In this document: positions 1,161-63,196 of the stretch, piece after piece
Layout: every line of letters starts with the position of its first letter
How positions within the stretch are numbered: position 1 is the first letter of the stretch
Assembly (NCBI GenBank): GCA_000091205.1
Contig: AP006493.2
Reading direction: 5' to 3' (one strand)
Length of the DNA: 64,000 nt
Source of the DNA: Cyanidioschyzon merolae
Taxonomy: Eukaryota
Notes under the pieces: model-generated
What the model saw: only the letters and a program-made list of their open reading frames with translations
The model's database searches: none
Told to the model about the DNA's origin: nothing
Translations under genes and position numbers: made by a program

Positions 1161-2173
1161 GACGGATGGATCCACTCGGCTGGCGACTGCTGAGCCTCGC
1201 TAGCCGGTTACGCTCGGCATGGCGTCGCTATTGAATGCGCTAGCTGCGGACGCTGTTGCGATCCCGAGCGTGCGGAGCTGCAGCGCCAGCGAGGCGCACA
1301 GTGCCGGCTCCGCAGATCGACGGGATTGCATCGGAAGCGACGCAGCATTCGTTTGCAGAAGCGCATGCGGTAGCTGTGAGTACGAGCAATGACCGCAAGA
1401 AGCAGCCAATCATGAGTGATGCCGAAGCTTCAGGCACATAGACGGCGTCGATGTCGTGGAGTCGAGCTGCGGATGCACACAGCAGCGAGTGCGTTGCCAG
1501 CATCGCACGCGTGCCATGTGTGCGTTGCGAGGGATCTGGGCACCACCGGGTCGCGAATGCGCAGGAGCAGCAACCGTGTCGCTCGCTCCGCTCCAGCGTC
1601 CTTGCGCACCTGCATCCGTGCAGCTTCATCGGTCAACCATATCGATCTAGTACGGTATCTCTCTGACCACCACCTGAAATGAACGGTGCCTGTCCAGTTG
1701 CGCTGCGCGTCAGGCGCATGCAAAGCCAGTGCATCTCGCGAAAACCTTGCATCCTCAAGCACTCAATGCCAACGCCGTGACACAGGCACGCAGGTGTCCC
1801 CAACTGCGCTGTGGATGCGCTCAGATGCCTCGGGCCGGAACGCATGGCCTCGACATGCACCGCACGCGCGGCACGCGTGAACACACGGCATGCGGGTGGA
1901 TGCGTCGCTGGGTGCCAAATGTCGCATTTTGCTTGCATGGAGGTATGAACAAATTGATCCCTAAGTGTATATAAAGTACCCTGATCGCTGCCGATCCTTG
2001 GAGCCGCTCGGACCTGCAGGGGCAAATCATCCCTAAATGTCCGAACAAGGATTCATCAAACCAGCGTGTTGCTGCCGTCCACGACAGACGCTCCAAATTC
2101 TTTCGTGCGCTTTCGCCTGTGGAATCCCTGTAACCTGACGCTGAAGGGTTCATCCAGCCTGCCGTTCAGGTTC

Positions 2174-2611
2174 ATGACAGACGCTGGCAGGTGTATCGAC
2201 AATGATGACCTGGGTGACTTTATAGCGTCGCTGGAAGACTATCAAACAGCGATCCCGGACCCGCTCGTCCAACACTTTCTCAACAAAGCCGGGTTCCAAA
2301 CGGACGATCCTCGCGTCATTCGACTGGTAGCGCTGGCTGCGCAAAAGTTCGTAGCAGATGTTGCACACGAGGCACTGACACAGCGCCGTATTCACCGCGA
2401 GTCGCAACACAAGGGCTCGAGCTCCACAGAGGATGACAAAGTTGTGCTCACCAAAGAGGACCTCAAGTGGGCGTTGCAGGAGTTTGGTATTCGACTGGCA
2501 CGAACAGAGTACTTTGCGGATAATGTGAGCACCACCACTACCACCACTGCCACTGCTAGTGGTACTGGCGGTGGCGGCACTGCTGCTGGCGGTGGTGCCA
2601 GTGGCAGCTGA
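2174..2611 (+). CDS. TAF10: TFIID subunit TAF10-like histone-fold protein. The start is placed at the internal Met; the open frame begins at 2066.
   Basis: DDLGDFIASLEDYQTAIPDPLVQHFLNKAGFQTDDPRVIRLVALAAQKFVADVAHEALTQ matches the conserved TAF10 histone-fold core (IPD...GF...D.R..RL..LA.QKF). The C-terminal tail is low-complexity poly-Thr/Gly encoded by an ACC/ACT/GGN repeat. Confidence 0.7.
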   Translation: MTDAGRCIDNDDLGDFIASLEDYQTAIPDPLVQHFLNKAGFQTDDPRVIRLVALAAQKFVADVAHEALTQRRIHRESQHKGSSSTEDDKVVLTKEDLKWALQEFGIRLARTEYFADNVSTTTTTTATASGTGGGGTAAGGGASGS

Positions 2612-2646
2612 GTCCAGCACACGTGTCGGTTGGTATGGTCGCGGAT

Positions 2647-5600
2647 TCAGTTGAGACGGGTCACCGGCACCAGTCCATGCAGTACATCCTGAATAAGCGT
2701 GATAAGACGCGCTACAAACGGACTGGTTCGCATGGTTTGAGCGGAACCCACGAAGACGAGCTTGCAGCGAGCGCGTGTCATGGCAACGTTCAGACGTCGC
2801 CAGTCGCGCAACACCTGACCAATACGTGCATTCGAGTTGCTGCGCACAAGCGAAACAAGGAGCACATCCTTATCCCGCCCTTGGAACTGATCTATGGTGC
2901 GGCACTCGGGCAGCGTGCCGGCATTGCGGATTCGCTGACCTTGGTGAAACTGATTCTGAATTAGACTAACCTGAGCGCGCAGCGGCGACGTAATGCCAAT
3001 ATGCTGCCGCTCGATGCCCATGTCATCCAGCGCCTCTACGATACGAACGATGATACTGGCTTCGAAATAGTTGCAAATGCTCTCCTGGCCGCAGCGAAAC
3101 TCGCGGGCCCGGTCCTGTGCGGCGTCCGTATTCAGGAAGAGTACCCGCTTTCGAGGATCCAGCACGTGCACCAACCAGTCCGGCGTCGGCGAGACATAGC
3201 GCAAGCCCTGTTGCCGATTGGTCAGGTGTTGCTCGGCGGTTGCTTGATCACCACACACCAAGCTACCATTGTAGACGAGAGCATTGCTCAAGAGCATGAT
3301 ATCAGCAGCCATGCGGTACTGCCGATGGAGTACGACCACTGCTTCTGGATGCGCTGCACACAAACGAGTAAAGAGCGACTCGTCTGCACCCTGGGCTTGC
3401 GCGAGCGGATCACGTGCCAAGGGCGGCAGTTGTTTGTCATCACCAACGAGCACAAAAGCTTTCTGAGCGAAACGGAGCGGCCCCAGAACGACAGGCTGTG
3501 CGATTTGTGAAGCCTCGTCCACGATCACGTAATCGAACTTGCGCCGGCGATAGAAGACCGGATGACTTGCACCCAAGCAGGTTGTAGCGACAATGGCTGC
3601 CTCTTCGAACCGGGCGCTGAAAGCGTCCAAAGACGGTAACAGCGGACTAGGCGCGGGCTCTGCGGACGTATCCGGCATCTGCTCTGTGCATAGCATATAT
3701 GGCCAGAGCTGTGGATCGACATGGGTGCGATTCCCGAGTCGCACGAACTTGTGGACATTGTGCTCGACAAGTCGACGGAGCACATTGTCTACAGCAGAGT
3801 GCGTGTGACTTGCCAGCAGAACGCTGCACCCTGCATCGACAAGCAGCGCAACGAGGCATGCCACCGTGGCGGTCTTACCGGTCCCGGGCATTCCCAGAAG
3901 GAGCACGTAATCCTGAGACCGCAAAACGCGCTCGATCGCTCTTTTTTGGTCTTCATTCAAGTCTGCGGCAAAGCGCTCCATGTGCAACAAAGCAGATGAT
4001 GACGGACACTGCGAATGTTCCGCACCAGGGGACAATGTAAAACGCGGTGCCTCAAGATCGATCACGAGACGTCGGAGTCGCTCCGCTTCGGGATAGAGGA
4101 GCGCCTCGAGGTTTCCGTACATGGTGCTGAAGCCCGCCGACAACTCCTCTCGATCTACACGCCAACGAACGGTGCTTGCTGGTATACATTCGACCAGGGG
4201 ATGACGCTGGAGCCACTTAGAGCAGTCTCGCTCGAGATCGATCTCGATTTCGCCAGTTAATGGTTGCACTTGCGCTACAAAACCACCAGCTATGGCGGTC
4301 TCCTGGCGAAGTGGGTCCCAGACGTCCGCCGAGGGCGCCGCGGAAACGTCACCGCCGTCGGGCAGGGCACGCGGTGGTCGCCTCCAGTACAACGAGACAA
4401 GCACATAATCGCCGGTGAGCAGATCCCATCGAGCGCCTTGCATCGCCTCGAGGTGGAGGTCGTCAGACTCGGGGCACTGGCGCCACGCGGGCGATGCAGT
4501 CGAACCGCCGCACTTGTCCGATGCGCTTTCCACGACGATACGGAAACGATGCCGATAACAGTCTACAAAGCGCCCAGTGCCTAGACCGTTGGTTTTTTCG
4601 ACCTGGACCAACTCGAGCTCGCCAACACAGCGTCCAAGTTGCGATCGTTCTGTCGGCGACAAGAGCCACACTTCCTCACGGTTGGCGACGGCGGCCTCTT
4701 CTTCGAGCCGCGTGATGGCGAGCCAGTGTCGATAGTAGGCAACATGCTGGTTGGAGAGTCCATCGGCCATTTCCCGGAAGACTGCTGGAATCGCACTCGA
4801 ATGTGCTTCTCCAGAATCGATCACTCGGTGGTAGAGCGCGCAAGCATCGCGAACATAACAGAACGAACAGAGATTCTCTTGATGCTGCAGAGGAGGCGGC
4901 AGATGCAGCCAACTGCGTCCAACCGCGTCCAGTGGGTCCTCCTGCTCTGCAGCACTCGCAGAAGCTCTTCGGAATCTCAAATAATGAGCGAGTTTGTTTC
5001 TCGTCATGAGGATACCTATAAGCTCCGCTCGTACCATGGGTATCAAATGAAGAGACATGGTAAGTTGGCCATGCTCCCGATGCGCGAGTCGACTGCCAGC
5101 TCCGCAGTTGGATCCTGTTTGGTTGTTTTGCAGGTACAGCAGTATCGTCGCCTGCACAGAGGTTCCGTAACGCTCACTCAACAATAGCGCATATAGAATG
5201 AGTTGAGCTCTGTGAGCGATTCCACTGAAACCCTCCTGGCGTCCGGTTTTCAATTCCAGGCAGGTAATCGGCAGCGTCTGACCCGAGCGATCACGATCCA
5301 GCAACTCAGCAGCGACGGTGACGTCGATGCTGCCCTTGAGGCCGAAAATGGGACTCCAGATGCTCTCTTCGATGTCATAGAGCTTCTGAATGCGCATACT
5401 GTCGACGCCGCTCAAGTTGCATTGTCCTCTGACCTGGAGATGCACCCCGTGCTGCTCGCAGCAAAGGTGCTGTACATGGAGCGCGAGATCGGGCACGCTT
5501 TCGCGCAGATAGGAGAGCAGCTCGTCTTCGGACTCACCGAGTGCGTACAGTTCCGCATAGTAGCGACGAACTAACTGACACAAGTCTTCTTCGGACACTG

Positions 5601-7329: not shown

Positions 7330-8339
7330 AGGCAGGCAGCGGTCTGAAGTGCCCGCTGCGAGGCGGGAACGACAGCTTCCCGCACATTGCCTCGTAGACG
7401 GGCAAGCATCGGCTGCATTCGCGTGGGCGATTCAAATCACCATATGCGAAAATGATGCAATTTCTAGTACAAGATTGCCTTTTCCTTCGGTGAGCGTTCG
7501 CTGCAGCTGCTGTACACAAAAATCACGTAGCCTGTCAGGAGTGCGGGTTACGCTTTTGCTGTACCATCGATGCACCTAGACGGACGCTCTTGGATGGACG
7601 AATACTGAGGGTATTGAAGCTGGAACTGAGACGCTTTTGATGATCTGCACATGTTCCACTATCTCGAGCGCAGACACCGCCCAAACAACATCGATGTATC
7701 AAAGCGAGAGGCGCTCATGTGGCTGATCAATCCTTTCTCCGATACCTCCTGAGCATTTTCCTGAGATGCAAGAACGATGTACTGGAGCGGGCTCAATGGG
7801 TGTCAACCAGCTGCACAACAGAAGCGAGAAGAGCAACGTTATCCTGGGTGCTTCAACGGACCACGAGCAAGGTACCGGAGTCGCTTCGGGCTAACGCGGG
7901 ATGTTCGGGCGACGGAGGCAAGGAGGTCCCTCGATCGTATCATTGACCGAAATGAATAGAGGTGCGCAGGCCGTGACAGAATATGATGCGGGATTTCTGA
8001 GCAGTCATCCGCCCGTTCCGAAACAACTCGGCGGGATGTGGCAGGGATCCTGGAACCGGCCTCGAACTCGGGCTCGTTTTTACCTCCTACTTCGGTTTCC
8101 ACCTCAACTTTGGAAACATTCTCGGTCGAAGTTTCGCACGACATCTAGAAGGATGTTCGCGGTTGCATTTGGAACAAGCGACTTACCCTCCTATATGTTT
8201 AGGGAGCGGATACGAAGCTGTTGAAAGAGTGGTTCGTGGATTACATACCCAGGTGTTGGGGGTAGCTTCACGCGTCCAACAGCGTAACCGTCGCTTTCGA
8301 ATCGATATCAACTGTTCTACTGCTGATACTAGTGGATGG

Positions 8340-9940
8340 TGCGCGTGAGTCGACGAAGCATCTCTGGAGTACCGCAGCGCTATTCTTATTCCCTTACGCG
8401 CTACGACTCGATAGGTTTCGCATCATGGAATATTTGCGGGATAGCCGCGGTGTTGAACGACGAGATATCGAATTACCAGTACAGTAATGAAGAACTGATA
8501 CAAGTCGAGGACGCTACATTAGCGAAAGAGACCCAACCAGATACGGAGAAGGAGGCACAGAAGCCTCATGATTCACCTAGAAGCAAAATAATCAGAGAAA
8601 GTAGCTCATGAAACAGCCCGAAGAAGAAGACCAGCAAGAAAAAACAGAAGAATAGAAAGAAGAACTCGCAATCGAGCTCATCACGAGTGATCCCCCGAAG
8701 GAGCACCCAAGCGGGAACTCAAGAAAGCTGTCACCAAACTCAGTTACCTACTCACAGCGCTGTAGATCCGACAAGCCGTGCATCCAAGTCTTTAGACCAT
8801 TTCGGACGCGTGTTTGTGGATGGGAATCAGAAGATTGGTAGAGAACTGGGACTGCTTGCACCAGAACGCAACAGTAGCAAACCGCAGTACCCGAAACGAC
8901 GTAAAAAAGCACAGATTGATGAATGCCATCAATTCGACAACGTCGTCACCCGCACCGCCATGCGATCCAAAGCCGGAGACAAGAAAGCAAGTGCAGCCCT
9001 ACCGGCGCTAACGGCGCAACATGAAGAAGCTATCAAAAGAAGCAAGAATCCCTGTAGGGAAGACAAACGAACGGATACAAGCCGCAGAGACGCATATCTG
9101 GCCAAATCTGTGCTAGAGAGCACCAACCAAGATGAGACCTGGCGCTACGTCCGAACAAGACCTCATCCACCAAATCAGTGCGTGTCCATCACACCAATCT
9201 ACCATAAAGGAGAGCTGAAGATAGAAAGTCCCTCAGTGAATGGGGCCTGGACGGACCATTACACAGAGCTGTGTGCGGACCTCTCTTGATACTGTCAAGA
9301 CCCAAACTAAGACAACTTGACTCGCTAGAGAGAAAGGACGACCCAATCTTTTGGCCCGAAATATGTGAGATTGTACGAAGCTCAAGCAACCACAAAACAC
9401 CTGGCATTGACGGTATCCCTGCGCAGTGGATCAAACTGGTGATCCCAAAAGACGGGACAACAGGGACACCATCGATACCAGATGAACCTGACACAGTCTT
9501 AGGCAAACACTTTCTGGAGTGCATCCAACGCATCTTCGAAGAAGCGTACATCCCAGAGGTACGGAACGCTGCCGAGGTCGTAACCATCATGAAACTGGAT
9601 CCTCAAACATACATGAACAACTACCGGCCTATTAGCCTCATCCCGTCAATCATGAAGCTACTTTGCGCTATCCTCACGAACCGGATCCAGAGGGACCTCC
9701 AGGAGCGCAAGTTCTTCGCCCCAGAACAGGCTGGATTTCTATGCTGCGAACCGGATGAGCGCACGGGTCCAGCGCTTCGTCCATCTACCCACTGGTGGAT
9801 ACCGAGCAAAAGCCCGCGTCGCGAACCGACAACGCATGACATACACCATCACGAAGGAGAGGGGCGGCCCCCAGGATTCATCCTGACTCCCAATATTCCC
9901 CAGCGCGTCGTGCGTCAAGGGCAAGTCGGCATACGCTGAC
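8340..9940 (+). mobile_element. Degenerate non-LTR retrotransposon (LINE) remnant: an APE-type endonuclease N-terminus plus a reverse-transcriptase N-terminal fragment, frameshifted and truncated
   Basis: ORF 8336..8611 contains FASWNICGI, an AP-endonuclease N-terminal motif typical of LINE EN. ORF 9271..9939 contains KTPGIDGIPAQWIKLV...NNYRPISLIPSIMKLLCAILTNRIQRDLQERKFFAPEQAGF, which is LINE RT domains 0/1. After that motif the frame breaks and there are no downstream RT motifs or poly-A tail. Confidence 0.6.
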
Positions 9941-10346
9941 TCGCTACCCACAAAGCGACGACGACACCGGACTCTACATTGCGTGAACATCGCCTCGAGC
10001 CGACGCCCTTTGTGATATAGCAAAGCCGTTCTGTCTCGGTGCTACATTCGCACCGGCGCTACGTGCGCTATCTCTGACGCTCGATAGAACATACGAAACG
10101 ACTAGTACATACGAGAAGAAGTACGCGGTATGGGACTCGGGCGTGGAACGATAGATGCTTCACCGAGCGCTGGTATCAAGCGCCTAGTCTCTGGGAACGC
10201 ATGCCTGCGCGAAAGCGTTTCGCCAAATTAAAAATCGGATTCCAGCACCTGAGCGGGTCCCGAGATGGAGGCTGCGCTGCAGCTCGAGTTTCTTGTCGCT
10301 TTTTGAGTAACGGAAACGAGTTTCACTTTTTTGACGTAGATGAGAA

Positions 10347-12920
10347 ATGCAAGAAACGTCCAGTGAAGACATCGGTGCCCTTGGAAAGCTACTGGAGAAC
10401 CCGAGCCCAGAGAGAGGCGGTGAAACAGGTGTCAGCGCTCTTGGGGCCAACGCGAAGCAGCACGTTTCCGTAGGCTCTACAGCGGAGTTTGACCGAGCGG
10501 GTACGAGCGCCAACAGTACACATGTATCGAAAGAAGAATCTTCAAGTCGAGTTTTAGGCGGATTTTTTGATATACACCAGAGAGAGCCACCACCCGTTTC
10601 GCGTTGGCCGTGGTCAGCGACACACGGGAGCGCAAGCGGTTCTCAGTCGACGTGCCCCGGCAGTGATGAAACCAAAAACGGGGGAGAAGTAGCGCGTGAC
10701 GCCAAAGAGGCCATGCAGTCGCGTACCTATACGTCTCTTGGTGGAGCTACTCGCGAGGTATTGCGTGGTTCTGGTTACGGGGCGCCTGTGAAGGACCCAC
10801 TGGCTCATGATGACAACGACAGAAGCAGCCAAGGCATTGGCTATGTAAGTAGCACGAAATGGAGAGGTTTATCAAATCAGGGTACACCTCTGTCAATGGA
10901 CTACGGTGCCAGGGAAACGAGCAGCGTGCAGCGCATCACGAGCGACCTCAAACACCTAGCATTGTCGGCACTGAATGGATCACCGCTTGGCTTTGCGGAT
11001 TCCCCGGAAGGCAACGCCATGTCCAGTATGGACGTGAGCGATCTGCTTTCAGTCTGCAAGCACGAGTCTTTCCAGCCGCGATCAATGGTCATCGAGCAGC
11101 AAGTCGCGCAAACGCCGCAGCGACGTGAGTCGGTGAGCTACCACATGGACCTCGCTGTGGATGAAAGCTCTGGTTTGCAACGTGACAGGTTCGTGCAGGC
11201 ACTGGGTTCGGGACACAGCACCGCACCGGGCAAGGAACTGGACCCTGTTGTGGTTCAAAGCTTCGGAGCGGAGCCAGGGACGCACGACGCCACCGAGCGA
11301 CTTGGGAAAGGCACTAGGTCCGAGCGCATTTCCACAGCTTTCGCAGAATCTTTGCCAATGCCCGCGTCTCGCCCAGAGACGGACACTCTCTTGCACCGGT
11401 ATGATCGTACTGATGAGAAGGCCGCCGATGCACGAGAATGGATCAGAGCAAACCGATCACCGATTACAGACCAGGGCTCGCTCTCAGTTTCTCAGTCTGT
11501 CTATCAGCATGGAAACATTCCCCGTGGTACGCGTTCAGAGGCGGCAGACGACGCTTTGAATGGGTCAGCAGCGACGCAACTGCGCAGCGATGCATTTCAC
11601 TCGAGTTCCCGTGTATGGGGATCTGCGCAACCCGAATATCCCGGTGTCGAGCAGCGTGTCCACGAGGTGGTCCATATATCCCGGCGACTTTCAGCGCTCG
11701 ACAAGACGCGCAGTACTTGGAGTGAAGAGACGTCCCGCGGTCCACGTGTGCCCGCCGGCGATCCCGATTCATTTCGTCAGGAGGCCGCGAGACTTGTTGA
11801 AAGAATTCGCCAGCTCGAAGGTGATTTACATCGTTCATCAAAGGAGCATCCGCGAGCAAATCCAGTGCGGGGCTCGGTCGCGCCTCCAGAGCGCCGCCGC
11901 TGCACCCCCGAAACGCTTCCCGTTGGAGCTATAGAGTCGAGAGCGCCTGATGTGCCAGCATCAAGTTCAGCGCATGTGGACGACGGTTTGGCCGTCGACC
12001 ACCGTAGCACCGGAGCAGAGCACGTCGCATCTGGTGGCGTCTTTCGGGAGACTGGAATCGGAGCCCGACGAGATCTTGATTCTACGGCACGTGAGCGTTT
12101 CCGAGAAACGCCTTCGCATGTACCTAATGCATTGCTCTCTGGGGAACGTCCACTGGACGAGCAGGGGCTGCTCGAAGCGCATGAGCTGCGGCGCTCACCG
12201 ACGCTGTCAACAGTAGATTCGACCCCAGTCAGCGTATCGCCGCTTCACACGCCGGTTGCGCGGCAAAGCTCCATAGAGCGCCGATCGCTAGCAGCCTCGG
12301 ACCATGCAAGTTGGTCGCAACCCGCACCTGACCACTCGGAACGGCACCATACACATGTTCAGACGAGTGGTCAAGAAGCTTTTAGCGAATTGCCACGAGC
12401 AACACTACGTCAACGGCTAGAAATCACCCTACGGCAACTTGGTGAACTGCAGGCTGTCGTAGACCAGCAGTTTGAAGTAATCGCTCGACTAGACGAAGAA
12501 AGGAGCGCCTTACAAGAGCGGCTCGCAGACACCACCGCGCCCTCAACGCCCATGCGTACGGCGAGTACGCAAACCGAATACTCCAAGCTCACAGCGTCAT
12601 CGGATGATGATGATGATGAACAACCACCAACAGCCGTGTACTGGCAACGCAAGTACGAGCAAGCCTGTCGCGAATACCGCTTCTATGCTTCCCAAAAATC
12701 ACAGGCGCTTCGTATTGCACAGCTCCGAAACGCGAAACTCGAACGCCTCGTCGAACGCCTCCAAAAGCAGCTTCACGAGGCCGAAGCCGACATCACCGTC
12801 GCCAGGGAACGCTTGACGAGGCTGCGACGAGAGCACCAGCGTTTGCGGACCTGGGTCCTGGAGAACGGCCTCACTTTGAGTCCCCTGCAAAAGCTAGAGC
12901 GTGAAAGCCCTAGTCCGTGA
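10347..12920 (+). CDS. Hypothetical low-complexity (Ser/Ala/Arg-rich) protein with a C-terminal coiled coil; the true start is uncertain
   Basis: This is an 857-aa uninterrupted ORF. Its C-terminus (RKYEQACREYRFYASQKSQALRIAQLRNAKLERLVERLQKQLHEAEADITVARERLTRLRREHQRLR) has heptad-like character. I recognise no catalytic motif. It contains a (GAT)n run encoding DDDDDE. Confidence 0.45.
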   Translation: MQETSSEDIGALGKLLENPSPERGGETGVSALGANAKQHVSVGSTAEFDRAGTSANSTHVSKEESSSRVLGGFFDIHQREPPPVSRWPWSATHGSASGSQSTCPGSDETKNGGEVARDAKEAMQSRTYTSLGGATREVLRGSGYGAPVKDPLAHDDNDRSSQGIGYVSSTKWRGLSNQGTPLSMDYGARETSSVQRITSDLKHLALSALNGSPLGFADSPEGNAMSSMDVSDLLSVCKHESFQPRSMVIEQQVAQTPQRRESVSYHMDLAVDESSGLQRDRFVQALGSGHSTAPGKELDPVVVQSFGAEPGTHDATERLGKGTRSERISTAFAESLPMPASRPETDTLLHRYDRTDEKAADAREWIRANRSPITDQGSLSVSQSVYQHGNIPRGTRSEAADDALNGSAATQLRSDAFHSSSRVWGSAQPEYPGVEQRVHEVVHISRRLSALDKTRSTWSEETSRGPRVPAGDPDSFRQEAARLVERIRQLEGDLHRSSKEHPRANPVRGSVAPPERRRCTPETLPVGAIESRAPDVPASSSAHVDDGLAVDHRSTGAEHVASGGVFRETGIGARRDLDSTARERFRETPSHVPNALLSGERPLDEQGLLEAHELRRSPTLSTVDSTPVSVSPLHTPVARQSSIERRSLAASDHASWSQPAPDHSERHHTHVQTSGQEAFSELPRATLRQRLEITLRQLGELQAVVDQQFEVIARLDEERSALQERLADTTAPSTPMRTASTQTEYSKLTASSDDDDDEQPPTAVYWQRKYEQACREYRFYASQKSQALRIAQLRNAKLERLVERLQKQLHEAEADITVARERLTRLRREHQRLRTWVLENGLTLSPLQKLERESPSP

Positions 12921-13885
12921 TCACCGAGCACACCTCCCGTCGTTGACAGTACCCGGACGCGGCCAGGTGCCGGCCGCAGCAACGAAGCCGCGTTCCGCAG
13001 CACTATGAGCGCAGTACAGCGCTCGCGATGGAGAACTGCCTCACCGTTTCATCCAGTATCGTAAATATCGCCGAGGGGAGTTTAAGCACCCCGGGGGCAC
13101 TCGAGCTCACTTGCCAACGCGCTCCGCTTCCAGTCGCCGGTCTCGCTCGTACAAGAGTCGATCCCAGCGATCCTGACCGACTCGTCGACGCTCACCGGTC
13201 GCAAGCCGGTGAAAAACACCTTGCAACAAACCCATGGACGCCACGGCAACGGTGACGATAACTAGAGAAGGCACGACTTCTGCCCACGCCATGCTTGCGA
13301 GTCGAATACGCCGTAACGTGCAGAGAGGCATCGGGCTCGCCTCGCCTCGCCTCGCTTTCATGGGTGGCGGCACACGCGTGAGCAATCGCGCACTCGTGCA
13401 AACACTCGCCGAATAGTCTTATTTCTGGACTTTATGGACAAGGATGCGGCGGGCGATGCGTCGATTGCGGAAGCGATCGACCGTTCTCGTGTATTGTTGA
13501 TGCCGGGGGCGCTGCTCGACACCTAGGTCCGTTCTTTGAACACGAATCCCAGGAGATTCTCGATGAAGCAATTGCTACTCGCTTCCAGGAGCGAATCCAG
13601 CATGCCACAAGATGCCTTCGCGTTCCACATCATATCCACCTCCAGTCATCCGCGCCCTCGGGGATTTGCGTCCGTTCACACACACACGATCCCTCCTATG
13701 CCTAGTACCTGGTGTGCGCGCCCTCTACGACGCTTTCCGCGCTTCTGCGGACGCAGTACCAATACAGAACAGCTTCCCGTACCTGGATTCATGTCCAAAC
13801 AAGAGATCATATGCGTTCCGTGCTGGAGCAACAGCAGCACGTGCCGTACACGCACACACGCACAGACGCACTAGTGCTGGGACAC

Positions 13886-14100
13886 GCACATTTTTTTAAC
13901 TGACAAGACGTATACTCAGGCCAGCGTTCTCCGTTATACGCTTTTTCTTTTGCACATTTTTTAACTGACAAGACGTATACTCAGGACAGCGTTCTCCGTT
14001 ATGCGCTTTTTCTTTTGCACATTTTTTTAATTGACAAGACGTATACTCAGGCCAGCGTTCTCCGTTATACGCTTTTTCTTTTCTTACTTTTGTTTTTCAG
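13886..14100 (+). repeat. Tandem triplication of an approximately 65-bp unit (gcacatttttttaactgacaagacgtatactcaggccagcgttctccgttatacgctttttcttttg), followed by a conserved pyrimidine-tract-CAG and TGCGCGTTGAAGTACCTCCATCC. It lies 270 bp upstream of TSG101.
   Basis: Three near-identical head-to-tail copies are read directly. The last copy plus its 3' extension is homologous to 57285-57392. Confidence 0.85.
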
Positions 14101-14373
14101 TGCGCGTTGAAGTACCTCCATCCATGGGACACGCACAGGCTGGCGCATCGCCCGCGCCAGCGCTCGCAGACACGCCGATCGCTCGCCACTCGACGGTGCA
14201 GATCGATGCCGCGGCACGCGCACAGCGCCATCCATGGAACGAACGCTGCGCACATTGCGCTAAGCAGCGCTGGTACAGGTGCGTCTCTCCGTGGTCGGCG
14301 AAACAGGTGCCCGCCAGGGACGGTGGCACTTAGACTTGCTGGGATCGATTAAGGGTGTATTTTGTAGCTACAT

Positions 14374-15724: not shown

Positions 15725-15852
15725 GTGGCGACATGAAAAGCATAACGGAGAAGGATGTCGTGCATGAACATCGCTGCAGCGGGTGACGATGTATCTATGG
15801 CAACATGAAAAGCATAACGGAGAAGGATGTCGTGCATGAACATCGCTGCAGC
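15725..15852. repeat. Tandem duplication with an approximately 72-bp period, 2 copies
   Basis: ggc(g/a)acatgaaaagcataacggagaaggatgtcgtgcatgaacatcgctgcagcgg occurs twice. It produces the duplicated MFMHDILLRYAFHVA in a spurious minus-strand ORF. Confidence 0.8.
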
Positions 15853-16850
15853 GGATAACGATTCGTTTGGCGCTCTGGGAAAGAGATCTCGCTCGCCGGT
15901 CGTTCGGGTTCAGAGAATGGACGGTACCCTCGTTCAGGGTCTTCCGTCCGATGCAAGTCGCTTCTGTGGCATCTTGTCGAAGCGCACTCGCAGCGTACCC
16001 GACGGAGGCGTCATTGGTCAACGGCAACAATGCGCACCACGCATTCGAGAACGTCAATGCATCGGGGTCCCGTACCAGCAGTATCTCAGCGCCGCAGACT
16101 GCCTGGGTACACTTTGTCGCTCCAGTGCCATGGATCTGCAGCACAATGACATTATCCGAGAGACAGGGCCGCTTCGTCTGCCTATCAAGGATCTGGATGC
16201 TGCCGTTTTCATGGTGAACACGATCGCATATTGTGATCTGTCACCGAAGCGGTAGTAGAGTCCAACGCCTCCAGCGCATGTTCGCCTGTGTGCGAGGTAA
16301 GCATCTCGATGCTGAGGACGCCACATATTGCGCTGGTGGTTATCATGCTTATGCATTGATGCACAGTAAACATTCTCTCTGTGAACTCGTGTACAATGAT
16401 GCGGTGATTGGCGTTTCCCCCATCTATCGAGTTAGTTAGCTGCACTGCGCTGTCCAGTGCACCACCATCCTCTCGGATCAACGCTTAGAGTCGTCTTTCG
16501 AAGGACACCGCTGCTCGCCCAACGGTCGGTTTTCAAGTCAACTTGCACAGAGTATTCACTTTAAACTGTTTGCATCAACCAGAGATGACGTTATGGGTAG
16601 CGCGCGACCGTGCCAATGCAACAGCAAGCGTCACCAGCGATGTGGCCTGCGCACCACTGCGTCCACAGAAGAGACGCAATCAACTGGTTTCGAAACGATC
16701 CAAACCGACTCGGTGCTGGAACGCATCGTCTTTACTTTGATCTGGATACCCCGACGACGAGAACGTATGTCTGTGCAGCATGGTACAGTGTTCGCCTACA
16801 ATTTCAAACCAGACGGTACAGTGAATGCTAGAGAATGATCGGACACCAGG

Positions 16851-17618
16851 AGTGTTTAAAAATAACGCAGAAGACTCGTTCTTGGTGTGTATGGACGGCT
16901 ATCCAGCATCTCTGGATCCCTCAGCCGCACCCTGCAAGTGCACTGCTTCAGGTGAGCAAGCCGTGGCCTCTCTCTCTGTCTCTCTGCTGGCCACTGAGCG
17001 ATTCCCCATCACAAGTCCGCAGCGATTCAGCATATCACGCCCGTACACGGCACTAAAGTACTCACTGAACGATTCGTTCGATGCATAACCGTTGCACGAT
17101 TTGGAATCAAACGACCCATTTCCGAATGTTGATCGAGGTGTTCTGATATCGGTGCAGAAACTGCCTGCGTGTATGGACGGTGGCGAGAATCACACGATAT
17201 CACGCCGATTCCTGTCGTTTTCCTCGTTATCCAGCGTTCGTTCACCTTACTCTACACCATCCCGTGCATTCAGCTCTATTTCACACGTTCATTCACTACC
17301 TACTTCAACGTGCACTTGTACTCATTCTGCGTCCATGTCGTCCTGAACACATCTACGCCCGTAAAGCAGCGTCGATACCAGCACTCTATGTGTGCCGAGG
17401 TCGAGGGCGCACGAGTGCAGCATTTGCGCACCACGGCGTGTCCAGCGTCATAGGATACCACCGGCAGACGACGCGATGTATCAGTCATTTCTTTTTGCGG
17501 CTCATTGAACAAGCTGGAGAGTCCCCAGCGCACGCTCATGGAAGCCTGCACAAAGTCGTCCGCTTGGTCCATATGGACGTTCATAGATACGCTCAGTGAA
17601 CGAGGCTCAGAACAAAGC
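16851..17618 (+). repeat. Copy A of a 768-bp dispersed repeat (solo-LTR-like, with TGTT...AACA termini). It is inverted relative to copy B at 42181-42945.
   Basis: It is the reverse complement of 42181-42945 at about 98% identity, shown by identical 139-aa, 94-aa, 84-aa and 87-aa ORF translations on opposite strands. I located the homology boundaries by direct comparison of the flanks. Confidence 0.9.
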
Positions 17619-20217
17619 ATGCGGCTCTGCTGGGCACTTTCCTGAGCGTGTCAAAATTGGTCCGAGCGCCATCATTCCCTTTTGTTGGTATGCTTCGTCG
17701 CGTCCATGATGTCTAGCGTTCGATAACCATGCCCCGGAAAAGTTGGGGAGCTTCACTTGCTTTCCGTTCAGGTTTTTGGCTCCATCCTCTCAGCTTCCAT
17801 GTGCAGAAACAGCTGCATTGTTCGCCAACCCATGATCTAGGCTCACCACGAAGTTTTGCTCTTCACATACTTGAGCATTGAACATGCATCTCGTCGCTCG
17901 ATGCAGACCAAGGTTTCAAAATAAGACATGCAGATTGACATTCCGTCGGTCTCCATTGTTCCTGAAAATTTATTTTTATTTCTTTCCTGTACATTAGAAA
18001 GCTTGAGCGAGCTCAACGGATACATTACGCAAAGCTTTTCGAATGCCTCCGGGTTGCTCGCGGTGACCAGCTTCTTCTTCACCTTCTCCGGTCCGTTGTG
18101 TGATGCAGTAGACGTGGTAACCATACATTATATCTATTTCCTATCATTCGGATTCAGATGAAGTGGGTAGACGGCGACACTGAATCTCGCCTCTTCTATT
18201 TATTTATTTACTATTTCTCATGTATCTTTTAGGCAGCTTTTCCGTACCGAGGCCGCCCACTGCGCGAATTGAAGGTTCCCGTTCCCTCCTGCGCACGAGC
18301 ACAAGAGCAGAAGAGCGAAAGCTCACTTCAGGGATGGTGGAGGTAGTAGAGGATGATTCGTCGATGAAAGCTGTCATAGATGCGAAGACTCATCCATCGA
18401 TACGTGAGCGTCGACAGGGCATTTCGCAACAGCGAAGAAGCCTCCCACAGGATTCATCCAGGGAGAATAGACTGGGATGAAGAGCAGCTCTATGCAAATT
18501 TCACTTGGTTATTCGTTAACCGCTTTTGAGTGATGGAGAGCGACATTATCCAAGAGCATGACAGAGGAGTGTGGGAAGAACAAGCCACGAAATGTGCTTC
18601 GACACCGAATGGAGGGTAGAACGATCCTGTCCGTTTGACGATTTGTAGGCGACCCCACATCAGCGTCGCATCTTAAATGGATATTGTCGGAATGTTCCAT
18701 TTTCTGTTCAAAAGAACCGGTACTTTATCCAGCTTCGGGTACCCGTGTACAGGTCCAATCTTTCTCCCGAATCAAGTTTCATCGAATGAGACGAATATCC
18801 GTCCCTATTGTAAGAAGAGATCGCGTTTTCGTGCAAAATCGATCGTTTGTTTTTCTTTTGCGAGCGACGCTTCCGTACAAAAGCGAGCTATCTTATTTTT
18901 CCATCAGTATCTCTTCATAAGCGTTCGTAGCGTCGGTGCGGAAAAGTTCAAATTCTGTGGCGTTGTTGGCAGTATTTCTTGGAGAACCTATTGAGTGGAA
19001 TGGATTGAATAACAGATGATGGTGTAGATGGAATTTCGTTAGTCCTGGTATGGACGCGCCCTATTCAGGATGAGGACTGCGAGAAGGAAAGCTCATCCAC
19101 ATACTGACTAACTGTAAAATGCCTGGTACCTATTAGGCCGTGTTCCGTAAGCTAGCAATAATATCATAACGTCTGTAAGCGAGTGTTCTCCAGCCTACTG
19201 GATAGATTCCAGTTTTCGAATACCTTCGAGAGAAACAAACAAAACATTCATTGCATGTTGCTCCATGTGTTTGAGAATTCACTGCACTGGGTACAGCGCA
19301 GATTGCGTTGTATGAGGAGCTCAGGAAACACAGTCGTATTCGAATTATGACTCGGAAACCGGCGTCTACCCCAGACCGGAAACGCCTTTCGCACGTGATC
19401 GAGACAGAGCTCCAAGCCAGTGCGCGTTCACTGGAAAGCCTGCTCCTCTTCCGCTTCCTTCGCTCCATGGAATCGTGCTCCCGTCAGCGCGAATACGCGT
19501 CCATCACGAGACTGTTACTCGCGACCCGGGTACCTAAAACGGCAACGTTTTGCACAACGGCCAGAAGGTTTTACGTCCAATACAAAACATGTACTGTTGC
19601 GGACCCGCAAGCTCCATCGCTGCTCTTTCGTTCATACTAGATTATCGGCACAGAGAAACCGCGGCAACCGGCATCCAAGCAATCTCCAAAACAATCGCGG
19701 ACCATGATCGTCTGCGGAGTGTGTCTAGAATCACATTCCTTTTGTGCAAGCCGGACTGCTTCGGTCATGATTTGTCAGTTGATCAATCGAATGATCTATC
19801 TGCTGTTTATCCTACTCGTTGCCCGTTTTGCAACGCTAATTGCACACTCACGTGACCAGAGCGGGAAAGCGGAACCAAATACCACTCCCATGACCCCAGA
19901 AGGCGACGCAAACGCTCGAACGCAATGCAACATACACAACTCTGCAACTTGTGAGACATACTCTACAGCGTCGCCTGCAGGAGTTGAAGAATACTCGATG
20001 TAGAGTGTAAAGGGTGCAGTTTGGTTCAAACCTGTTGACTGCACGCGCAAGGCAAATATCCCAGAGGCGATGGAGCGCAGTTTGCAGCTTCTTGGACGGT
20101 TTGCACTGCACAGAACGTGCAGTGTCCGCCAAGCAGGTTCAACAACGAAAACAAGCAACACCGCGAACTACTGACGAACGCTGCTGAAGCAAGCAAGTGT
20201 CGCCAAAGCAGTCAGAC

Positions 20218-25300: not shown

Positions 25301-26410
25301 GGTCGCGTTCGCGGGTGCATACGAGAACATCCTGAAGTTGATGTCCGGGTGGAGTGTTCGCGATACCGTCGATGTCATAGATGTTATCGGGTTTGTGTCG
25401 ACGCCAAGCAAGTCCTGGACTTGTCAGCGTTACACGGTTTTAGGGGACGGGTGAAACAGTGGGCGCGGCACTGGTACTCTAGTTGCACAACTTGTTTGGA
25501 TCCGGGGAACGTGTCGCAAGAGGTTCACGTTGTGGGTGGTATCCTTCTGAACTCTAGCGATTGCCCGCCTGTGTGTACATCAAAAGTGCAGTACAGCAGC
25601 CTTGAGTGCCGGGGTCTCGAAGGGTCCGTCTACTCGTCAGCGCTTGCGTCTGTTCCACTGAAGCGGTCTGCTCTAGTTGATACAGCAGTCGCGTCAAGGC
25701 TCGTTCCCTCTAGCTCTGGTAGACCGCTGCTGTCTGCATAAGTATTTCGCTGGTGCCATGTGTCGCGTTTCGCAGTCTTCCTCTCCGACTCTACTGACAT
25801 GCACCTGTCGGCGGTGAGGCAGCGTCTTCTCAGCACCCGTTTGAATGGCTCCATATCAGATAAGCATACTGATTCCAGAGTGTTTTCCTCTACGATCACC
25901 AATGGACTTGTTCGGAGAAACCCTCATGGCGAATCTCGTCTTGGTACAATGCGCGCCGTACTTGCCACCGCTGTGACCTCCTAATAATCCGTGACGTTGA
26001 AGAAACACCCTAATGCGACCTCTCGGCGTCCTGAAGGTGTCTTCCAGTAGCTCGTGTGATGATTAGCGTCGCAGCGAATGCTCGAATGTCGAGTAGGCGC
26101 TGCGTTTTGACGTCACGTGGATGCCTCGTACCTTCACTAGCTCAAGCAGTGCAGACCGGTGAGCCGCTGGTGTGTTCGCTACCTTCTGGATGCCAAAGAC
26201 TAGGTTGCTGCGACAGTGAACTTCAAAGATGATGGTGAAAGCGACACGTTCAGGGGATCGTTGTCGCATTTGTGTGCGAGAGGAATCATTCGCAGCAGCT
26301 TTACAGCGAATCCGCTGGCAAGGAGACTGCACCCGTATATAGAAACGATTGGAACAGATTCGACGCACAGACTCGCGAAACTGGAATTTAAAAAGCAGGA
26401 TATTTTACTC

Positions 26411-26715
26411 TTGCTCTGATAAGACTGTAAATGGAACGGAATCCGCCGTCTACAGCAACGTGCGTAGCAACACAAGCTACCCATTATCACGTAGTTAGAA
26501 GATAAGCGGGATACGCTATTCTTGCACTGCTACGACCGTAAATGGAACGGAATCCGCCGTCTACAGCAACGTGCGTAGCAACACAAAAGCTACCCAGTGT
26601 CACGTAGTCACCAGATAAGCGGGATACGCTATTCTTGCACTGCTACGAGTGTAAATGGAACGGAATCCGCCGTCTACAGCAACGTACGTAGCAACACCAG
26701 CAACCCAGTATCATG
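26411..26715. repeat. Minisatellite with an approximately 112-bp unit in about 2.7 tandem copies
   Basis: The unit tgtaaatggaacggaatccgccgtctacagcaacgtgcgtagcaacacaa(a)gctaccca...cacgtag...agataagcgggatacgctattcttgcactgctacga is repeated head-to-tail. It sits between the convergent metalloprotease and enoyl-CoA hydratase genes. Confidence 0.85.
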
Positions 26716-26984
26716 GAGATAACAGCAACCATGCAAACGTACGCAACGGATCCCCCGAAACGCTTACATGAGTGCCAGGGTTGCGAGGCGTGGTTTTCCC
26801 AAACATTCATACGCGCAGCGGCCGGACACATGTACATCCAGCGCTCATCTGTGCAACTCGGGAACGCACACACATATCAACGACGTCACGACTGCAGAAC
26901 AAAAGCGGTACTGTCCGTGAACCAAAGGCAGCATCGGTCTCTGCGCCCGACGGATTCCTTGCCTGGTGGCGATGCCTGCTCCCA

Positions 26985-32338: not shown

Positions 32339-34810
32339 GGCACGACGTATAGAGTGCTCCAAGCTGCAGATGAGCGCCTGTGCGTAGCGCAAGTCCATGC
32401 GCTCTGAAGTACAGCCAATGACGATTGCTTCGCGGAGTCGAAGACTGCTTTGCATGCAGACTGCCGAGGTGTCAGCAGGGATGCAGAGGCACAACTCGAG
32501 TCATCCAGAGAATCTTCACAATGGTATGTGATGGATCTCAGTGCGGGTGCTTTGCTCGTGGGTCCGGGGACTCGCGTTGCGATTCGAATCCGGGTGTTTC
32601 CTGTGACCATAGCCTTCTAGGCTTGAATAGCTTTCACAATTTGTTGCTAGTGCATAGCGGCTATGGAATACGTGCGCATTCGCGGACGCTCTAAACAGGA
32701 TATCTTGGGGGCTGTTTTGCCTGTGAGCTTGAAATCCGTGATCGCCTGTTCCACGAGAGAAACACAGACGACGGAGTTCTCTTCCAAAGGTGTATGAATG
32801 TCCACACTGGCTGTTGCCACAACAGGCACGGTCTTGGCAGCTCGTGCTACAGCCTCTGCTTCCTACAGCATCTTCGCTTCAGTCACGAGTTCGATTTGCG
32901 TGGATAACATGCCTCATCGCTATGCGCGGCGTCAAGCTGGACGGGAAATTCTGCTGCCTCCACGACTAGGCGTGGAAACTGCGATCCTGAATCTGGTCAA
33001 ATCAGTGCTAAAAAAAGGTTAGTAATCTGGTCCAAGGAACTGAAGCAGGTCGCGGGGACGCCACCGTTTTGATGAGCGTACGCTGGCGACCAGTTGCAAG
33101 CGACTGGCAGGTCCAGGCACTACAGCTGGCCGCTGCTCGAAGAATACGCCCATCGACCGGGGCGCGTCTCACGACACTGAGACAGTTGCTGGTAGCGACA
33201 TAACCGGTTCCGTCTCGAATGGCCAACATAGGGAGCACACTGCCAGAGTAAGCCCCATTGTGTTCACGAGTCGCCGTCCATGAAGGACGGTCGCTCTCGC
33301 TCGTTCCATTGCTGATTCAGTGCAGGCTGCCGCTGCCAAACATGGGGCGCAAGCACCCCAACGCGGCAGCAGGTTCCAGCGCTGCACCATCGACAAGCGA
33401 CGTTCACTGTCGCGCAGCACTCCCGCTCTTATTGGGGTTCTGTGGTTGCAGTCCCGCGAGCAGAAGTGTGCGCGACCTGAAACGCCCAGCTTTGCTTACC
33501 ACCGACACTCTCTGACCTACTGTCCGGGGACTTTCACCCAGAGCCAAACGGCTGGCATCGAATCAGGGCGCACCTGTTCGCACCGAGCCTGGTTTAGGGG
33601 CTAATCCAGGACCCTCCCGTAAACCGTACGTAGCGCTCTGATAACGAGGAACGCTTAGCAGAGTCTTCCCCGAGTTGATCCGTTGCGTCCGGAGCAATTC
33701 CAGTTTACTTACGTTCTGTTGGGCGCGAAAAAAGCAACATTAGCTTATTGAGTGTGTGCTGGCGTCGGTAGCCAATGTTCTCGTGGTGAATACGTCCACG
33801 GACAAGGCGACTGCCACGGGCTGGTTGCGGATCCGCGTAGACTTTCCTTTGGGAAAAGGATCGTTTAAACGACACAGAGGTCCTTCACCCAAAAAAAAGC
33901 CCCGCTCGGCAGATCGCACAACATGCCGCAGCGTTTCTTCTAATTCCGTCAACTAACCACGTCCGAAGCCTCATTGGTGAATACGAGTCAGCTCGAACAA
34001 GACGGCACCGAGTTGTCGGAGCCGCGCCGAGGCGCGTCAAGACGGCGGCGTCACAAAGATTACAGATTGAAACTAAACCATATGATATAAATAGAGTCAA
34101 TATATCCATTCCCACATAACCGCTTTGCTGCGCTGAGCATCCTATAGAGTCCGAGGAGAATGCTCTGGTGTCGTCGACACCGCAGTGGGCGAGGCCAGAG
34201 CGCTGCCTCCGGAACTATCGAGCATGCTTGGAGATAACATCCGCACGAGGCCGTCCTGAACGGTGATGCTTTGAGCTCGAGTTTGTCATGGTGTGGTGAA
34301 ACGCCCCTGAACGAGTGCGACGTCCACAGACGCCCGCCGCACGCACAGGGTACAGACGGTATCGAGAAGGCGCCCTCACTCCGTACCGCAACTGCCCCAG
34401 TGCACCCAATAAAGTCGCAACACACGTAGCCTACGTTCGTTATCCAGAAACTGAGTCGATCCATCTTACAGCGACGCCCGTGTGTGTCGCGGGTCTGCAG
34501 CTTCTGCGTCACGGAAGCGTCTCTAGTGATGCAGGGGTCGCCTTAGCTGGCTGTCGGCAGTCGAGATGAGTTCAAGACTGCACCCGGTGCATCGTAGGCA
34601 GGGTCCAGCAGCGCGCACCCACGCTACGTCCCATTAATACAGTTTTATCTATCTCTATGCTGATTTACTGTTCGCTCGTGGCGAATCGCCCAAGGCGCCA
34701 TTTTAGCCGTATTCATTATTTTTGAATTGCCGTGCTGCTTCCAGGAACGCTGGTTGCAACGAAACAGGCGTAGCGGTGTCTTCTCCTGCGCTCTCTTTCT
34801 CTCTCTCTCG

Positions 34811-41173: not shown

Positions 41174-42180
41174 ATTGCACGTTTCCAACGGCTTCCTGCA
41201 CACTCCGCATCAAGGCCATGGGCGATGACCCGTACGAGCATATGCTTCGAATCATGAGAGCATAGGGTGCAGCGCTCCAGCTGTGGTACCTGGAATAGCA
41301 AGCGAATTGGCGCTCGCTCATTCCCTCTGGTGATGCGGAATGGATGTACTCGTCGAGAACGCGACGCGAGTCGTTTATCATATGATCAGAGCGGTGAACC
41401 CTGGCATAGCGGTTCCCGTACGCAATTTTTGTCTTCGTTTGTTTCTGTCGCAGGTATTCCATAAAAGGATGGTATCCTGGATGATGGAGAAACGTCGCGG
41501 ACGGGTTTTGTGGCGTCACTGGTCGCTTGTAGAAAATAACTTTTCTTTTCAAGTTCAGGCATTGTAGGGTCAGCAGGCGGATGAAGTTCATGACGCGTAT
41601 TTCGAATGCCGAACGTCATGGACGCAAAACAGACCTTACCAAACGCTCTGTATGCGACGCTGTCAATCGATTACTCTCGACAAGTGATCTAAAAAATAGG
41701 ACCATGGACGGCACATGCTATGACGTGTCCGTCGTGCTGGTACCAGCAATGACGAAGACACAAGGATGGATAGAGAACCAAGCAACTACGCTTGTACGCG
41801 ATACCGCCGCAAGTCCATATAAAGCGTTCAAGCGGGGAGAATGACAACTTGAGACCCAGCGGGGATTCAGTTGCGTGAACGTCGACGACGCACCGTTGGG
41901 ATTGGGTCGTTCGACATACCTCATGCTTCGCTGGGGCACGTTTCGTTGCTTCTTCTTCTTCTTCATATTCTTTTGTCTTGATCGAAGCCAACGTCGCTTT
42001 ATGCAACGCAAATGTGGTCAAGTGCATGCAGCTGATATGAGTCTTGAGCAAATCTTCGTTTCAGAGTACTTTTTCCCTGGTTCAGTGCCGTCGGAGGTGT
42101 GCTTTTGGATATCGAACGCCAGTTTTGCGCTTACGAATGCACAAACGAGTCGTGCGGGATCGTCTCCAGTGATGAGCTGG

Positions 42181-42945
42181 TTTGTTCTGAGCCTCGTTCA
42201 CTGAGCGTATCTATGAACGTCCATATGGACCAAGCGGACGACTTTGTGCAGGCTTCCATGAGCGTGCGCTGGGGACTCTCCAGCTTGTTCAATGAGCCGC
42301 AAAAAGAAATGACTGATACATCGCGTCGTCTGCCGGTGGTATCCTATGACGCTGGACACGCCGTGGTGCGCAAATGCTGCACTCGTGCGCCCTCGACCTC
42401 GGCACACATAGAGTGCTGGTATCGACGCTGCTTTACGAGCGTAGATGTGTTCAGGACGACATGGACGCAGAATGAGTACAAGTGCACGTTGAAGTAGGTA
42501 GTGAATGAACGTGTGAAATAGAGCTGAATGCACGGGATGGTGTAGAGTAAGGTGAACGAACGCTGGATAACGAGGAAAACGACAGGAATCGGCGTGATAT
42601 CGTGTGATTCTCGCCACCGTCCATACATGCAGGCAGTTTCTGCACCGATATCAGAACACCTCGATCAACATTCGCAAATGGGTCGTTTGCTTCCAAATAG
42701 TGCAACGGTTATGCATCGAACGAATCGTTCAGTGAGTACTTTAGTGCCGTGTACGGGCGTGATATGCTGAATCGCTGCGGATTTGTGATGGGGAATCGCT
42801 CAGTGTCCAGCAGAGAGACAGAGAGAGAGGCCACGGCTTGCTCGCCTGAAGCGGTGCACTTGCAGGGTGCGGCTGAGGGATCCAGAGATGCTGGATAGCC
42901 GTCCATACACACCAAGAACGAGTCTTCTGCGTTATTTTTAAACAC
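42181..42945 (-). repeat. Copy B of the 768-bp dispersed repeat, in inverted orientation relative to copy A
   Basis: See copy A. The reverse complement shares TGTTTAAAAATAACGCAGAAG...CGCTCAGTGAACGAGGCTCAGAACA with 16851-17618. It lies immediately downstream of the stop (42969) of the 987-aa minus-strand gene. Confidence 0.9.
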
Positions 42946-42968
42946 TGATGATGATCTAGTATTTGACA

Positions 42969-56646: not shown

Positions 56647-59478
<2,832 letters not shown>

Positions 59479-62400: not shown

Positions 62401-62533
62401 GCATCCAGTGTTGAAAACCGACATCGCCGGTGCCGTGTCTCAAACTCAGGAGGAGGGAGCCAATGATCCGAATGGAAAGCATTCGAAGCTCGTGAACGTT
62501 TCCAAGAATCCATAACATCGAGATGCGGGTATC

Positions 62534-63196
62534 ATGCACGGCAGGAGACATGTCAACAAGTCCAGTGAGCGTGTCACGAGGTGTCCTGTGCTCGGAACAC
62601 CATATCGTGCAGTGCGGAATGCTTTGTGCGGTTCAGTCAGAGCGCACCTGATCGTCTACGAGGCTTATGCGGATGAACGTTGGCAGTGGTACACGAGATG
62701 GTGCTATGGATGTCGAAGGTTTCGGTTATTTGATGGCAACGAGCGAGCACTCGCAAAGCTGTTCGACGAGTTGGAAAGCGACACGGCCGATAGTACGCGT
62801 CGTATGGTGGTAGTCCGTGGCGCTGGGCGTTTACTAGTACGCAACTGCGGCACTCCTGCAACTTCGACGAGTCCGTGCAACGAGTGCAGGAATCGGATCC
62901 CTAGAGTGCTTATCGATACGTCCGGAAGGATGGATATGCACCATGAGCGCGGGTGCACGCTGAAACTGGTAAAGGAGAAGAAGCGTGTGAAACAGAGACC
63001 GCCGGATGAGAGGGTGCGCTGTAGCTTGATCGACCGTCATTCGAAGAAGCAGCCGACTTTGAGACACTTCCTATGGTGCGATGCTACCGGCGACAATACA
63101 AGCAAGCGCTTTCTTCGTCGAATCGTGAACGCCTTGATCAGTAGGCGGGACAGCGTTTTGCCTCTGGAGCGTCCACCAAGTTTATGTTTAGCGTGA
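62534..63196 (+). CDS. Possible Cys-rich small protein (220 aa); function unknown; weak call
   Basis: It is the only ORF longer than 200 aa in the AT-richer 3' part of the window and has several C-x-x-C-like pairs (CGTPATSTSPCNEC). No homology is recognised, so it could be a non-coding ORF. Confidence 0.25.
   Translation: MHGRRHVNKSSERVTRCPVLGTPYRAVRNALCGSVRAHLIVYEAYADERWQWYTRWCYGCRRFRLFDGNERALAKLFDELESDTADSTRRMVVVRGAGRLLVRNCGTPATSTSPCNECRNRIPRVLIDTSGRMDMHHERGCTLKLVKEKKRVKQRPPDERVRCSLIDRHSKKQPTLRHFLWCDATGDNTSKRFLRRIVNALISRRDSVLPLERPPSLCLA

Follow-up and report, generated by a model that had tools for sequence, protein, structure and literature searches.

We find that two related non-coding segments upstream of TSG101 (locus 1) and of the phytoene desaturase gene, PDS (locus 2), in Cyanidioschyzon merolae are, almost certainly, independent 5′-truncated insertions of a C. 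merolae non-LTR (LINE) retrotransposon family, corresponding to its 3′-terminal 104 bp and 210 bp, respectively. The family is ~4.27 kb long, has one long reverse transcriptase (RT)-encoding ORF and ends in a short A-tail. No function is needed to account for either insert. Both lie in what we refer to as the window, the whole 64,000-nucleotide stretch of DNA that was analysed, which exact matches of four encoded proteins (Table 1) assign to the 852,849-bp chromosome 11 of C. merolae 10D.

Two related segments in divergent intergenic spacers

A first-pass annotation of the window had described a conserved ~105-bp element on the + strand at 14017–14125 and 57285–57392. The similarity itself was confirmed. 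When the window was compared with itself by blastn, 14015–14122 aligned to 57283–57389 at 81% over 112 columns (E 3e-19), which is far beyond chance and higher than the 70–75% identity originally given. Both loci also carry the T-rich tract ending in ttttcag and the 22-bp block that had been pointed out; the ...TTTTCAG tract and TGCRCGKTGAAGTA block fall at 14097–14114 and 57366–57383. The orientation needs to be reversed, since the biologically meaningful strand of both copies is the minus strand. At the PDS locus, repeat-derived sequence extends to 57499, past the end coordinate first assigned to it.

The proposed amplification of the TSG101 copy into three tandem units of ~65 bp was likewise borne out. 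TRF reports a tandem array at 13886–14082 with a period of 65, 3.0 copies and 94% matches (65/66-bp unit), and a repeat search of the window places three 66-nt copies at 13886, 13951 and 14017. The last array copy continues into ...CTTACTTTTGTTTTTCAGTGCGCGTTGAAGTACCTCCATCCA. A third, more diverged relative is found on the opposite strand at about 10077–10234. Within it, 10082–10172 aligns to 57367–57458, downstream of the portion that locus 2 has in common with locus 1.

The small MWFE gene sits between CMK134C and TSG101 (Table 1) and, because it is encoded on the minus strand, the region upstream of TSG101 is a divergent spacer. Both inserts are inside spacers of this kind, MWFE(-)/TSG101(+) and EF-G(-)/PDS(+), and both are antisense to TSG101 and PDS. 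The TSG101 start had been placed at 14374, which is a TTG supplied by the ORF lister, upstream of the first in-frame ATG. Distances of 270–380 bp to the start codons, as given in the first-pass annotation, hold (~294 nt to the TSG101 ATG and ~359 nt to the PDS ATG), although the TSG101 start coordinate used there does not.

The window also contains two tandem duplications outside these loci and an RNase MRP RNA gene (Table 1). A 2025 preprint describes the C. merolae RNase MRP RNA as encoded within an intron. An RNA gene was considered as an identity for the two segments and rejected: across the window, Rfam at gathering thresholds recovered no family other than RNase MRP, and ARAGORN found no tRNA.

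Table 1. Coordinates of genes, LINE-derived sequences, target-site duplications and other repeats, in window numbering unless a contig is named
Feature	Position	Strand	Remarks
Degenerate LINE copy, internally deleted	7888–10234	+	consensus aligns to 7888–10172 in four colinear blocks
CMK134C	10347–12920		exact protein match
MWFE (NDUFA1, complex I), small gene	~13107–13290	-	PF15879 in metagenome contigs; ORF MAWAEVVPSL...
Locus 1 target-site duplication, left	13878–13889		TGGGACACGCAC, 12 nt (13 counting the adjoining A)
Locus 1, 5′-truncated LINE 3′ end	13890–14124	-	consensus 4175–4274, 85%
Locus 1 target-site duplication, right	14125–14136		TGGGACACGCAC, perfect direct repeat
TSG101/Vps23	first ATG 14419	+	UEV and Vps23_core domains
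Tandem duplication	15726–15862		~72-bp spacing, two repeats, 95%
~3-kb interspersed repeat	16844–19298		
Tandem duplication	26393–26725		~111-bp unit, three repeats, 85–89%
RNase MRP RNA gene	33236–33666	-	Rfam RF00030, 81.5 bits, E 5e-21
~3-kb interspersed repeat	41387–42953		
RelA/SpoT-like protein	46194–47639		exact protein match
Chloroplast EF-G	54334–56646	-	exact protein match
Locus 2 target-site duplication, left	57277–57289		AGCTGCTTGCAAT, perfect 13 nt (15/16 if extended)
Locus 2, 5′-truncated LINE 3′ end, 210 bp	57290–57499	-	consensus 4094–4274, 88.4% over 181 nt, E 2e-51
Locus 2 target-site duplication, right	57500–57512		AGCTGCTTGCAAT
Phytoene desaturase (PDS)	57751–59478	+	exact protein match
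~3-kb interspersed repeat	59994–63140		opposite orientation
Loci with RT-linked tail	L021, L023, L025, L034, L036, L039, L041, L043, L044, L045, L047		metagenome contigs

The segments match the 3′ end of an RT-encoding LINE family

The third relative leads directly to the parent family. No long ORF is present in the 3-kb interval 7330–10346, although an ORF within it, at 9271–9939 (+), reads ...KTPGIDGIPAQW...NYRPISLIPSIMKLLCAILTNRI..., the N-terminal motifs of a non-LTR reverse transcriptase. This ORF has a weak Pfam RVT_1 match (E 0.06), is 70% identical to a protein named "retroelement, alive [C. merolae 10D]" and has many metagenome-fragment homologues with RVT_1. Since the third relative lies directly 3′ of the ORF and on the same strand, the "element" upstream of TSG101 and PDS appeared to be a LINE tail read backwards.

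One RT homologue of this ORF (P0085) is encoded on a 161-kb C. merolae-type contig, L006. Window positions 9746–10037 align to 2475–2773 of this contig, the sequences of locus 2 and locus 3 (the third relative) are found just beyond, at 2837–2877, and a second tail copy is located at 8877–9162. A five-way alignment of the copies has ~200–330 columns common to all of them, and similarity ends after an A-run (TCAATTAAAAAAA, GAATGAAAAAAA, CAAATTAAAAA, ATCGAAAAAAAAA and GTCGGAAAAA).

A metagenome search for loci encoding RT relatives yielded 34 C. merolae-type LINE loci (L019–L052, 259 kb). In at least nine RT-encoding copies (11 loci are named in Table 1) the element sequence is present on the RT strand, ~1.65 kb past the RT match. 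These RT-linked tails are 77–88% identical to locus 2 over ~175–190 nt and 74–86% identical to locus 1 (82–86% in L021, L023, L039 and others). The length of the family was determined from the coverage of L041 by other copies (8593–12857), which has sharp common ends. Copy-to-copy homology stops at L041 12854–12859, in ...GTCAGTGAAAAA or ...ATCAATGAAAAAAAA, and is followed by unrelated flanks. The family 3′ ends read ...CGGAGAACGCTGGCCTAAGTAAACGTTTTGTCAGTGAAAAA, with at least five distinct flanks beyond them, and in L039, L025, L041 and L045 the ends consist of A5–A9, where similarity stops.

We built a majority consensus from 19 copies (4287 nt), which is rough and has two patched frameshifts. 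After patching, its ORF of ~1094 aa matches Pfam RVT_1 with an E-value of 1.3e-29, and an FADD motif is visible in the RT. The best PDB match is human LINE-1 ORF2p (E 8.5e-21), followed by R2 proteins. Neither an APE-type nor a REL-type endonuclease domain was recognised by Pfam or PDB comparison in this rough, frameshift-patched consensus, a result that concerns the clade of the parent element and leaves the derivation of the stubs unaffected. Within the window, the consensus matches 7888–10172(+), 14114–14021(-) plus the two extra tandem units, and 57462–57288(-), and nothing else.

The first of these matches is a degenerate copy from which 1.64 kb of internal sequence (consensus ~2090–3732), and with it most of the RT domain, has been deleted. 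The N-terminal RT ORF remnant at 9271–9939 is part of this copy, whose 3′ tail (about 10077–10234, ending AAATTAAAAA) is the third relative described above. It occupies most of the ORF-less 3-kb gap upstream of CMK134C. A target-site duplication was looked for around 7888–10234 and none was found.

More diverged solo LINE tails were also seen in the metagenome contigs, at L041 7913–8223, L021 7549–7715 (-), L039 7955–8088 (-) and L006 8877–9170. They apparently represent an older subfamily without the internal A-rich stretch. Some of them adjoin full-length copies, and two in L039 are arranged tail-to-tail, which suggests nested or clustered insertions.

Both stubs carry the marks of insertion

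Read in LINE orientation, the locus 1 insert begins TGGATGGAGGTACTTCAACGCGCACTG... and ends ...GTCAGTTAAAAAAA(T). Tandem amplification has since lengthened it from ~104 bp to 235 bp. The locus 2 insert ends ...GTGAATGAAAAAAA, with the junction ...GAATGAAAAAAA|ATTGCAAGCAGCT, and its 5′-most 12–40 nt match L047 2504–2532 at 93%. The tract and block that first drew attention to the two loci are accounted for by this orientation: reading the LINE 3′ UTR, ...GATGGATACYTCACCGYGCACTG-AAAAA..AAAAGTAAGAAAAGAAAAA..., as its reverse complement gives both "T-tract + CAG" and TGCRCGKTGAAGTA.

Each insert is bounded by a target-site duplication (Table 1). Both duplications sit exactly at the homology boundaries and adjoin the A-run, which is A7 at both loci. 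Among 200,000 random window intervals of these lengths, 195 had a flanking repeat of at least 12 nt (~0.1% per interval). At locus 1, LINE homology extends all the way to the 5′ target-site duplication, and at locus 2 no more than ~11 nt separate the two. In L022, a solo tail truncated at another point is flanked by a 21-bp target-site duplication (ATCGGTGAAACGCCTCCGTGG). In consensus positions, the 5′ ends are at ~4168 (locus 1), ~4015 (locus 2) and ~4186 (L022), compared to 1–21 for full-length copies.

The two stubs are 85% (locus 1) and 88.4% (locus 2) identical to the consensus and 81% identical to each other. This relationship is star-like and, with each stub nearer to the consensus than the two are to one another, it fits independent copies of a master sequence. 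Pairwise similarity between the loci stops near 14124 because the shorter copy is truncated there.

We searched the metagenome for the corresponding empty sites. For locus 2, the exact 28-nt pre-insertion junction had no metagenome matches, the strains sampled being ~99.3% identical. For locus 1, no empty site was found among the TSG101-locus contigs, as every contig that reaches the site carries the insert.

The anatomy of the stubs is the classical one of insertions made by target-primed reverse transcription. Under such a mechanism, reverse transcription of the element RNA would have begun at its 3′ end, primed at a nicked target site, with the nicking step assumed from the family type. Early arrest of synthesis would leave a 5′-truncated, "dead-on-arrival" copy, and repair of staggered target cuts would produce the 12–13-bp target-site duplications. 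At the TSG101 locus, a 66-bp segment would then have been tandemly duplicated after insertion, by slippage or unequal exchange.

The array upstream of TSG101 varies in copy number

The array unit joins GCAC, the four bases with which the left target-site duplication ends, to the last 62 nt of the LINE tail. Because the unit includes 4 bp of flank, the duplication arose at the TSG101 locus after the insertion.

Alleles were compared among contigs that encode exactly the TSG101 protein of the window. The 3-unit allele, in which insert and target-site duplications together span 259 bp, is present in the reference and in L009–L011. A 2-unit allele of 192–193 bp is present in L013 and L014, and a 1-unit allele of 128 bp, with a 104-bp insert, in L012. 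Several contigs break inside the array, and short-read assembly could collapse 65-bp repeat copies; however, the 2-unit alleles carry unit-specific variants, which speaks against collapse. Judged from these assemblies, the array is probably a minisatellite with one to three copies among natural strains. Two other public contigs have ends that look like assembly artefacts or chimeras. Positions 1–25 of L017 are Illumina adapter-like sequence at a contig end, and positions 1–100 of L018 depart abruptly from the other TSG101-upstream contigs ~145 nt before the ATG.

Alternative explanations

The segments had originally been read as a possible promoter or initiator module, as the 3′ end of a 5′-UTR intron or as a small non-autonomous transposon. 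A shared cis-regulatory module upstream of TSG101 and PDS (a promoter, an initiator or a cluster of transcription factor sites), or LINE tails secondarily co-opted as one, is in our estimation very unlikely. The position of the copies would suit such a module, as both lie in divergent spacers with a + strand ATG 250–360 nt downstream, and their AT-rich tracts could exclude nucleosomes in a genome of 55% GC. In addition, the 13-nt core GYGCNCGNTGAAR occurs six times in the window compared to an expectation of 0.37, although the pattern was chosen post hoc and its occurrences come from only two repeat families. However, the same sequence ends RT-bearing LINEs that do not precede genes, the target-site duplications and A-tail mark both copies as insertions, and the inserts are antisense to the genes. 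The number of repeats upstream of TSG101 varies from one to three among strains. In Cyanidiococcus yangmingshanensis (L003) and a second relative (L004, L005), the orthologous EF-G/PDS spacers also lack the sequence, which is a weak test as these spacers are unalignable; the near-identical strains L001 and L002 (99.3–99.4% identical) are uninformative on conservation. The promoter reading is therefore not supported by our data, and nothing points to later regulatory co-option of the LINE tails. The specific possibility that the tails were co-opted, with the T-rich tract acting as a nucleosome-free or initiator region in both divergent promoters and the 65-bp array tuning TSG101 or MWFE expression among hot-spring strains, strikes us as quite unlikely. 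The core pattern had no matches in viral contigs, and in the literature we found neither a promoter motif nor the LINE stubs described.

We regard a conserved 5′-UTR intron as exceedingly improbable. The + strand order of T-rich tract, CAG and conserved block does resemble a polypyrimidine tract and acceptor, but there is no GTAAGT-like donor within ~700 nt upstream at either locus, and only 39 introns are annotated genome-wide in C. merolae (bioRxiv 10.1101/2025.12.01.691491). The tract is fully explained as the reverse complement of the A-rich 3′ UTR of the LINE (CTG-AAAAA...), and the supposed acceptor falls inside an insertion bounded by target-site duplications. Of the readings first offered, the small transposon came closest: a transposon origin is upheld, and the search for target-site duplications that had been recommended found them (12, 13 and 21 nt). 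A distinct small non-autonomous element, either a MITE or a SINE that has borrowed a LINE tail, is nevertheless highly improbable. Such an element would fit the short length of the copies (104–210 bp), their dispersal, their target-site duplications and their A-rich end. However, the same search detected no terminal inverted repeats (3–9 of 30 positions match between the ends, with no inverted pairs), and there is no tRNA or Rfam match at either locus and thus no tRNA, 5S or 7SL head. LINE homology continues up to or near the 5′ target-site duplication, which leaves no room for a foreign "head", and the 5′ ends differ between copies, as listed above.

A general promoter element defined by the 13–18-nt motif was also considered and rejected, as its other sites lie in a different, ~3-kb interspersed repeat. 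The 18-mer CAAGTGCACGTTGAAGTA is found at 17301–17318(-) and 42479–42496(+), with a variant, GTGCACGCTGAAA, at 62953–62965 (+), and within the 3-kb repeat it resembles the LINE-tail block GTGCRCGKTGAAGTA. As the 3-kb repeats that carry the 18-mer are otherwise dissimilar to the LINE consensus, we treat the match as probably coincidental. The repeat is represented in the window by three copies or fragments that are 58–64% mutually identical (Table 1). They include an inverted pair of 769–776 bp, 16844–17619 and 42178–42953, that is 98.7% identical. Pfam searches of ORFs in the 3-kb repeat returned nothing significant. It is probably the 253-copy interspersed element of Nozaki et al. 2007, and probably corresponds to the CMe-1A (Fanzor1) and TE-N2_CMe elements of Bao & Jurka 2013.

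Relation to known elements

Neither the LINE stubs as a type of sequence nor their parent family is new. The census of Nozaki et al. 2007 (PMC1955436) for the finished genome comprises 26 non-LTR-like class I elements, of which three have intact RT ORFs. The sequences described here belong to the same parent family, the RT remnant being 70% identical to its "retroelement, alive" proteins and the tails 85–88% identical to the consensus of RT-bearing copies; unlike the elements in that census, loci 1 and 2 are RT-less 3′ stubs, which a search based on RT would miss. In the literature, these individual copies, with their target-site duplications and the 65-bp repeat of variable copy number, appear to be undescribed.

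Truncated insertions of mammalian L1 are similar in their variable 5′ truncation, common A-run at the 3′ end, 12–21-bp duplications and star-like relationship, and the best solved match of the RT is human L1 ORF2p. The C. merolae elements differ from L1 in their very short A-tails (5–9 nt), and no APE-type endonuclease is recognised in the rough consensus. The stubs share with SINEs and MITEs their short length, dispersal, lack of coding sequence and flanking target-site duplications, but they have no Pol III-type head or inverted termini, and their length is set by where reverse transcription stopped. With a 65/66-bp unit present in one to three copies among strains, the array resembles the minisatellites (VNTRs) of retroelement tails. 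In contrast to those, its unit spans the junction between element and flank, and the array is therefore specific to the TSG101 locus rather than a property of the family.

The similarity, which resembled a regulatory or splicing signal common to two genes of a model alga, is transposon debris, and the value of the result is mainly as a correction. C. merolae has been described as nearly transposon-free, with 26 RT-related elements. RT-less LINE stubs add to that count, and they can be mistaken for promoter motifs in motif discovery. As far as mechanism can be read from anatomy, the perfect target-site duplications point to classical target-primed insertion by the LINE family. The 65-bp repeat upstream of TSG101 provides a copy-number-variable marker among environmental C. 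merolae strains.
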